The notes beneath the pieces were generated by a model, which worked only from the letters and a program-made list of their open reading frames with translations, was not told the DNA's origin and did not search any database. Position numbers and translations under genes: made by a program. From a virus (lineage: Duplodnaviria; Heunggongvirae; Uroviricota; Caudoviricetes): a stretch of 40,486 nt of DNA. Of this stretch, positions 11,382 to 11,467 are shown one piece after another. The stretch is taken from the IMG/VR virus record IMGVR_UViG_2526164661_000012. One strand, given 5' to 3'. Each line of letters starts with the position of its first letter. Within the stretch, counting starts at the first letter, position 1.

Positions 11382-11410
11382 GCCCGCCAGGAATGGCGGG
11401 CTTTTGTTTA
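11382..11410 (+). terminator. Rho-independent terminator (GCCCGCCA-GGAA-TGGCGGGC + TTTTGTTT)
   Basis: Perfect 8-bp GC stem, 4-nt loop, T-tract on plus strand; no annotated plus-strand gene immediately upstream. Confidence 0.5.
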
Positions 11411-11448
11411 TGTCATGCAAGTGCATGAAAACCACTACATAAAGCGGG

Positions 11449-11467
11449 CAGGCGTGGCGGGGATACG
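11449..11467 (+). other. cos-like sequence (GGCGTGGCGGGGATACGAG)
   Basis: First 13 nt match the recalled 186 cohesive-end sequence GGCGTGGCGGGGAAAGCAT; GC-rich island in AT-rich region; lies between early and late arms. Confidence 0.35.

Follow-up and report, generated by a model that had tools for sequence, protein, structure and literature searches.

The stretch of DNA analysed here, called the window throughout (40,486 nucleotides, IMG/VR record IMGVR_UViG_2526164661_000012), carries a P2-like prophage of E. coli, and the locus of interest lies between its rightward replication and SOS genes and its leftward portal and terminase genes. The following features frame it:

7310-9682, plus strand: gene for replication protein A (Phage_GPA family match)
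9775-9794, plus strand: LexA-box-like palindrome TACTGTAAATATAAACAGTG, seen in the sequence
9836-10024, plus strand: small ORF of 62 aa (phrog_698)
10035-10268, plus strand: dinI/tum-like gene (DinI Pfam, PHROG and NCBIfam matches)
10271-10313, plus strand: inverted repeat with 19-nt arms and without a T tract (repeat search)
10321-11325, minus strand: left-hand cargo, about 1 kb (left edge from comparison with the cargo-free phage MLG42, right edge from the conservation profile)
10535-11065, minus strand: gene for a 176-aa cargo protein (phrog_37247 match)
11326-11476, plus strand: cos module of the Fels-2-type lineage, about 150 bp, -125 to +26 from the top-strand nick (column conservation)
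11477-12999, plus strand: right-hand cargo, between cos and the portal gene (ORF list)
11783-12865, plus strand: gene for a 360-aa HExxH cargo protein (HEYSH motif in the translation)
13000-14046, minus strand: portal gene (family match)
14043-15809, minus strand: large terminase gene (family match)
37709-37787, minus strand: RybB small RNA, full-length, 105 bits (Rfam), beside the right end of the prophage

The RybB gene, together with a right flank (37800-40486) that is 100% identical to E. coli ybjL-ybjM-grxA, indicates that the prophage is integrated at the E. coli rybB locus. Within the cos module itself, the following parts could be distinguished:

11327-11332, 11341-11346 and 11351-11356, plus strand: distal repeats TGCATG, GCATGA and GCATGA, putative recognition repeats of the terminase small subunit
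11355-11376, plus strand: tandem 11-bp direct repeat GATCGTTTGAG/GATCGTTTTAG (repeat search), with two GATC (Dam) sites
11379-11409, plus strand: intrinsic-terminator hairpin (consensus scan, RNA folding and lineage conservation)
11415-11419 and 11422-11427, plus strand: proximal repeats ATGCA and TGCATG, followed by AAAACC at 11428-11433 (family alignment)
11451-11469, plus strand: predicted 19-nt 5' cohesive end GGCGTGGCGGGGATACGAG (homology to the P2 and 186 termini)

The first-pass annotation had noticed a GC-rich, cos-like sequence about 40 bp beyond a strong terminator and had likened it to the start of the 186 cohesive end. All of this was confirmed: GGCGTGGCGGGGA, at 11451-11463, begins 41 bp past the end of the T tract and is identical at 13 of 13 nt to the first 13 nt of the 186 cohesive end ggcgtggcggggaaagcat, and it occurs as a single copy in the window, where chance would give 0.05 copies even with one mismatch allowed. 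The alignment with the P2 and 186 cos regions that had been proposed as a check was carried out, and the flanks in the window line up, base by base, with the right-hand and left-hand termini of both phages across the nick (window ...CATGCAAGTGCATGAAAACCACTACATAAAGCGGGCA / GGCGTGGCGGGGATACGAGCGCGCGC; 186 ...CATGCAACTGCATTAAAACCGACCCATAAAGTGGGCA / GGCGTGGCGGGGAAAGCATTGCGCGC, the slash marking the nick). Over 11451-11469 the window agrees with 186 at 15 of 19 positions and with P2 at 14 of 19. The nicks would accordingly be expected between 11450 and 11451 on the top strand and between 11469 and 11470 on the bottom strand; this placement rests on the P2 and 186 termini as annotated in their deposited records, and we take the genome ends of these two phages to be experimentally mapped. 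The records of SEN8, EtG, R18C and YpM_476A terminate at the base aligned to 11450, and the SEN8 record opens with the identical 19-mer, labelled 'putative cos site'; the paper describing SEN8 gives no end mapping for this phage, whose cos label is 'putative' only. Every invariant column of an alignment of 111 P2-family sequences is present in the window, the core flanks are in place (TGCATnAAAACC...AAGCGGGCr left of the nick and GCGCGC after the overhang), and the site lies between the gpA/DinI side and the portal/TerL side of the prophage. In a BLAST search of phage records, the block 11327-11480 was matched in 45-107 P2-like phages of Escherichia, Salmonella, Klebsiella, Yersinia and Erwinia. 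From its sequence, we identify the locus as an ordinary P2-family DNA-packaging cos site in a Fels-2/186-like E. coli prophage.

Relatives of the locus were collected from IMG/VR with a degenerate pattern restricted to the invariant core, which yielded 120 loci; because the hairpin was absent from the search pattern, this set is unselected for it. The nick-anchored alignment of the recovered sequences comprises several cos types. Among the 53 unique sequences of the Fels-2 type, conservation is 0.8-1.0 inside -125 to +26 and about 0.4 outside, with abrupt edges, and the sequence on either side of the module is unrelated cargo among the relatives. Read from left to right, the module holds first a set of three GCATG-type repeats (-124 to -95) and then a tandem GATCGTTT(G/T)AG repeat. 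The hairpin and T tract come next, followed by a further pair of TGCA repeats, after which the AAAACC...GCGGGCA core leads into the overhang and GCGCGC; the window retains all invariant columns of the Fels-2-type lineage alignment. The distal triple stands at the same offset in P2, 186 and P4, the tandem 11-bp repeat is conserved throughout the Fels-2-type alignment, and GCATGA is present in 5 copies within 147 bp here, compared with 29 copies in the whole 40.5-kb window when both strands are counted. The columns at 11415-11433 are almost invariant over the 111 P2-family sequences. By analogy with cosB of lambda, the three distal and two proximal GCATG-type repeats are probably recognition sites of the terminase. 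The 1990 work of Ziermann and Calendar is said to put the functional cos at about 125 bp. A core of about 55 bp common to P2 and P4 begins at 11422 of the window, and it is the 55-bp core that three later papers (PMC5694545, PMC3931495, PMC9594776) cite from Ziermann and Calendar (1990).

Several smaller observations concern the same block. A short plus-strand ORF (11343-11504, 53 aa) spans the cos nick and is probably spurious, and the same ORF is called 'hypothetical protein' in several phage records (2517-2660, 2517-2726 and 2517-2666); with its end in the variable flank, this ORF is likely to be an artefact of annotation. Two more GCATG-type motifs lie right of the module in the cargo-specific flank, namely GTGCATGA at 11480-11487 and ATGCAT near 11506; the former duplicates the proximal copy 59 bp away and may be there by chance. 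A reading of TGGCGGGCTTTTGC as a sigma-54 promoter was rejected by eye, its GG-to-GC spacing being one base under the consensus, and a terminator-like call on the minus strand (11447-11432) proved to be just the conserved AAAACC...GCGG core in reverse.

The hairpin, which the earlier annotation had described as a strong rho-independent terminator on the plus strand, withstood closer inspection. Its core stem is formed by GCCCGCCA (11382-11389) pairing with TGGCGGGC (11394-11401), with 8 bp of which 7 are G-C, around the loop GGAA (11390-11393), and it is followed by the T-tract tail TTTTGTTT (11402-11409); outer G-U/A-U pairs between 11379-11381 and 11402-11404 bring the total to 11 pairs, 7 of them G-C by the scan. 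The dyad is centred 59.5 bp left of the nick. The predicted folding energy of the RNA is -22.8 kcal/mol (z = -4.9), a value that none of 200 shuffled sequences reached. The region 9500-13500 is not enriched for terminator-like sites as a whole (4 found versus 3.2 expected), and the site at 11382-11409 is by far the strongest of them. Of 46 unique Fels-2-type sequences, 41 have a hairpin with the identical centre and 36 have a site at this offset by a more stringent terminator definition; the 46 contain almost no other terminator call within 400 bp upstream. Within the lineage, 92.9% of stem cells are paired, compared with at most 59% in slid controls, while the loop varies (GGAA, GAAC, GTTC, GTAG, GAGC) and the stem substitutions are mostly one-sided G-U wobbles, which are tolerated by RNA. 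No compensatory double changes were found in the stem within the Fels-2-type lineage, because its sequences are too conserved for covariation, so that conservation by itself does not tell an RNA hairpin from an element acting in DNA. The first three T's after the stem (alignment T82-T84) show no variation and the fourth is at least 90% conserved, in contrast to the free variation of the next seven columns. The tract also persists in variants in which it has no upstream pairing partners, as suits a U tract and not a longer stem. The hairpin of this lineage has every sequence feature of a rho-independent terminator, and termination in vivo would be expected at 11402-11409.

The same annotation had remarked that this terminator has no annotated plus-strand gene upstream, which is correct in the sense intended: the nearest real plus-strand gene is dinI/tum-like and ends at 10268, 1.1 kb away, and the immediate neighbour is the minus-strand gene at 10535-11065. 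The layout of 9775-10313 is that of the annotated 186 SOS operon p95-tum-t95a, and the left-hand cargo begins after GTTGAACAAC; the promoter-like sites of its 176-aa minus-strand gene lie at about 11112-11184. Among the matches listed, 8 E. coli genomes share the segment from 10300 to 11476-11482 at about 99% identity and diverge from the window at +26 to +32 from the nick, and we read this divergence as marking a recombination joint at the module edge. The arrangement in relatives explains why the hairpin appears isolated here. Of 41 lineage loci in which dinI can be recognised, 17 have its stop codon 206-207 nt from the nick, and in cargo-free loci the hairpin follows dinI at about 135 nt; in Yersinia phage MLG42, the gene precedes a T-less inverted repeat, from which about 30 nt lead to the cos module. 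Because the only intervening hairpin lacks a T tract, as read at this one locus (MLG42), the cos hairpin is the first canonical terminator after the dinI operon, and it looks orphaned in the window because about 1 kb of cargo with a minus-strand gene has recombined between dinI and the module. Fels-2, Cartapus and ST15-OXA48phi14.1 have a plus-strand gene whose end lies immediately left of the module; in roughly one third of the lineage members, as judged from crude ORF calls, a minus-strand gene adjoins the module.

On the other side of the module, the nick and the portal stop codon are 1,549 bp apart. The remark of the first-pass annotation that such a placement would be atypical holds for P2 and 186 themselves (187-196 bp), and their types have about 185 bp (P2 type) and about 188-190 bp (186 type), but it does not hold for the present cos lineage, in which the median is 1,760 bp (range 161-3,532) and 33 of 39 loci exceed 500 bp. 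The title of a 1996 report by Dodd and Egan agrees with variable genes adjacent to cos. An anti-phage hotspot beside cos, between gpA and gpQ and with cargo in either orientation, has been described by Rousset et al. (2022; PMC9122126). The locus has the variable gene content of this hotspot, as its flanks are unconserved beyond -125 and +26 and the cargo differs among relatives, comprising a 565-aa gene in Fels-2, an 'abortive infection protein' in RE-2010, a TIR-domain protein in ST15-OXA48phi14.1 and two genes in SEN8. About 1,270 of 5,426 complete E. coli genomes match the query, with the match confined to the cos block among the matches listed, and among these none of the E. coli genomes shares the right-hand cargo. 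The 360-aa protein gives weak matches to Peptidase_M48 and Lit-like families that are far under the curated Lit cut-offs; its gene had no megablast match in the 5,426 complete E. coli genomes (among the matches listed), and the protein had no tblastn match in 50,697 phage records. PADLOC matched no model to the cargo proteins, and PADLOC, PHROG, NCBIfam and phage tblastn together gave them no firm identity. The 360-aa protein may be a metalloprotease-type exclusion protein, encoded by a gene of the cos hotspot. Between the end of this gene and the portal stop codon lies an inverted repeat (12880-12926) with 11-nt arms (CCCAAATGACA / TGTCATTTGGG) and a 25-nt loop, which may be a terminator for the convergent genes.

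We consider it probable that these observations have one explanation, namely a cos module that contains its own terminator and was orphaned by insertion of the left-hand cargo. The element is of a known kind, a P2-family cos, in a common lineage variant that has an intrinsic terminator within the module. The terminase would nick the top strand between 11450 and 11451 and, 19 nt to the right of that bond, the bottom strand, producing the 5' overhang GGCGTGGCGGGGATACGAG. The hairpin, facing the rightward replication and SOS units (A, the small ORF and dinI/tum), would end replication, SOS or cargo transcripts before cosN, and this termination would prevent rightward transcription from entering the right-hand cargo and the leftward portal-terminase operon in the antisense direction. 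Exchangeable accessory genes flank the module on both sides, and this is the known cos-adjacent hotspot of P2-like phages. The earlier suggestion that the terminator insulates cos from early-operon read-through is plausible to the extent that, in relatives without left-hand cargo, it appears to be the first terminator with a T tract after dinI; nevertheless, transcription across cos is tolerated in lambda, so insulation of cos itself is not obviously necessary.

Three other explanations have to be weighed against a cos module with its own terminator. The terminator might end an unannotated small RNA arising in 11066-11380, as the first-pass annotation had offered, and in favour of this the strong terminator has no adjoining co-oriented gene. 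However, a promoter scan gave no plus-strand promoter-like site in 11066-11380, whose portion 11066-11325 is cargo-specific and instead holds the promoter-like sites of the divergent minus-strand cargo gene; the sequence left of 11326 is not conserved among the relatives that keep the terminator; and in cargo-free relatives the same terminator comes directly after dinI. Rfam reported RybB alone at the gathering threshold over the whole window, so that no family was assigned to this region, and only noise was returned for 11000-11800 at E <= 10. The small RNA was thus not borne out, having no promoter-like site on the plus strand, no Rfam match and no conservation left of 11326, and we regard it as very improbable. 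It could also be supposed that decay of the prophage has left the terminator and cos as an inert remnant, neither of them in use any longer. Failure of induction or viability is common among P2-like prophages, and no plaques were detected for BTP5 (PMC5322425), but all lineage-invariant columns are kept in the window, the genes for A, DinI, portal and TerL have their full length and match their families strongly, and the ORF map is that of a full-length P2-like layout up to rybB; decay is therefore an unlikely explanation, if less so than the small RNA.

The third alternative concerns the level at which the hairpin acts, and it stands somewhat better than the other two, although we still think it has a small chance of being correct. 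It holds that the hairpin serves chiefly as a DNA element of the packaging signal: the terminase or a host factor would need a dyad or spacer at this set distance from cosN, and the likeness of the hairpin to a terminator would be secondary. The 186-type sequences have a dyad CGCCAGAGCTGGCG of 5-6 bp (186 at about 2060-2073 of the compared sequence), and P4 has a dyad of 8 bp, ACCGCGCC-ATTCCC-GGCGCGGT (256-277 of the compared sequence), whose stem has two pairs compensated relative to the Fels-2 type; both are without a T tract and both are centred at -59.5. The centre is thus fixed in the Fels-2 type, the 186 type, some other types and P4 despite differing stems, the hairpin lies inside a sharply bounded module that is never broken by cargo exchange, and the annotated 186 terminator t95b is elsewhere, at -189 to -162. 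The same offset in 186 and P4 without a T tract, together with the different position of the 186 terminator, indicates that the dyad may have a role other than termination. The family-wide pairing favours the DNA-level reading as well: 73.1% of stem cells are paired over the 111 sequences, compared with 63.2% in a set of 500 shuffles, none of which gives as high a value, and at most 46% in slid controls, although these sequences are related by descent, isolated pairs in the 186-type rows add to the signal, and the non-Fels-2 lineages have no U tract.

Against a DNA-level role, part of this cross-lineage covariation comes, as we read the alignment, from the isolated 186-type pairs; the dyad is absent from most P2-type sequences; and P2 itself has none at that offset. 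The P2 terminase packages both P2 and P4 (PMC9122126), which implies that it does not require the dyad. In the Fels-2 type, the invariance of the T tract does not depend on upstream pairing, as fits a U tract, and most variants of the stem are G-T, a mismatch that is more disruptive in DNA than in RNA. The neighbouring gene of P2, old, is transcribed away from cos, and this fits a transcriptional role of the hairpin. The presence of the hairpin was compared with the orientation of the upstream gene in the non-Fels-2 types, giving a non-significant odds ratio of 3.2 (p = 0.12) with crude ORF calls on non-independent sequences. We also speculate, giving the idea a similarly low chance, that the dyad at -59.5 may be an old, position-locked cos component of the P2/P4 family, serving terminase assembly at the DNA level on the circular packaging substrate, and that only the Fels-2 type would have added a T tract and so made it a terminator as well.

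For annotation, the cos module with its own terminator is useful because it gives the prophage a definite packaging site and predicted virion ends, and because the short nick-spanning ORF of several phage records can be treated as probably spurious. The edges at -125 and +26 delimit the exchange of accessory and defence genes and can help to define cargo, of which the 360-aa HExxH protein is an example. A hairpin locked in position within the packaging module is the sole mildly new point, and it does not constitute a new kind of system; the terminator in the module and the dyad at the same offset in 186 and P4 are small details of the architecture of P2-family cos sites.

Compared with named systems, the cos of the window has no sequence homology with that of lambda. 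The two are alike in outline, as lambda cos (cosQ-cosN-cosB) also has a nicking site flanked on one side by repeats for the small terminase subunit; however, lambda has a 12-nt overhang, an IHF site and not a hairpin lies between its repeats, and late transcription normally crosses the site. P2 and P4 share the core from about -29 to +26 and have distal and proximal GCATG-type repeats at the same offsets, but their cohesive end is GGCGAGGCGGGGAAAGCAC, unlike that of the window. P4 has a GC hairpin at -70 to -49 with a different stem sequence and no T tract, and P2 has no hairpin and the neighbouring gene old directed away from cos. The published cos hotspot (PMC9122126) has variable genes beside cos, as found here, with the mosaic joints falling at the module edges in our case; its cargo is anti-phage, whereas the cargo of the window matches no PADLOC model.

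Phage 186 (NC_001317) has the same gene order, with A, a LexA-controlled tum/dinI operon, a plus-strand terminator, cos, portal and terminase; the first 13 nt of the cohesive end are the same, with 15 of 19 overall, and the flanks are homologous (CATGCAnnTGCATnAAAACC...AAAGyGGGCA / GGCG...). The two cohesive ends differ at positions 14-19 (ATACGAG-type in 186 versus AAGCAT), the 186 portal gene lies 196 bp after cos while the window has 1,549 bp of cargo, and t95b, the annotated terminator of the same operon just before cos, is outside the repeat region in 186, which has only a T-less dyad of 5-6 bp at -59.5 where the window has the hairpin with its T tract. Fels-2, SopE-phi, RE-2010, SEN8 and the P2-like phages of Klebsiella and Yersinia (Felsduovirus and relatives) have the same cos type GGCGTGGCGGGGATACGAG as the window. 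The window differs from most of them in its tail, with T at 11407 where at least 90% of Fels-2-type sequences have C, and in its loop GGAA, which is that of Yersinia phage MLG42, in place of GAAC or GTTC. Phages of the Felsduovirus group carry the same 150-bp module at 83-97% identity, hairpin included, with cargo on both sides that differs from one phage to another.
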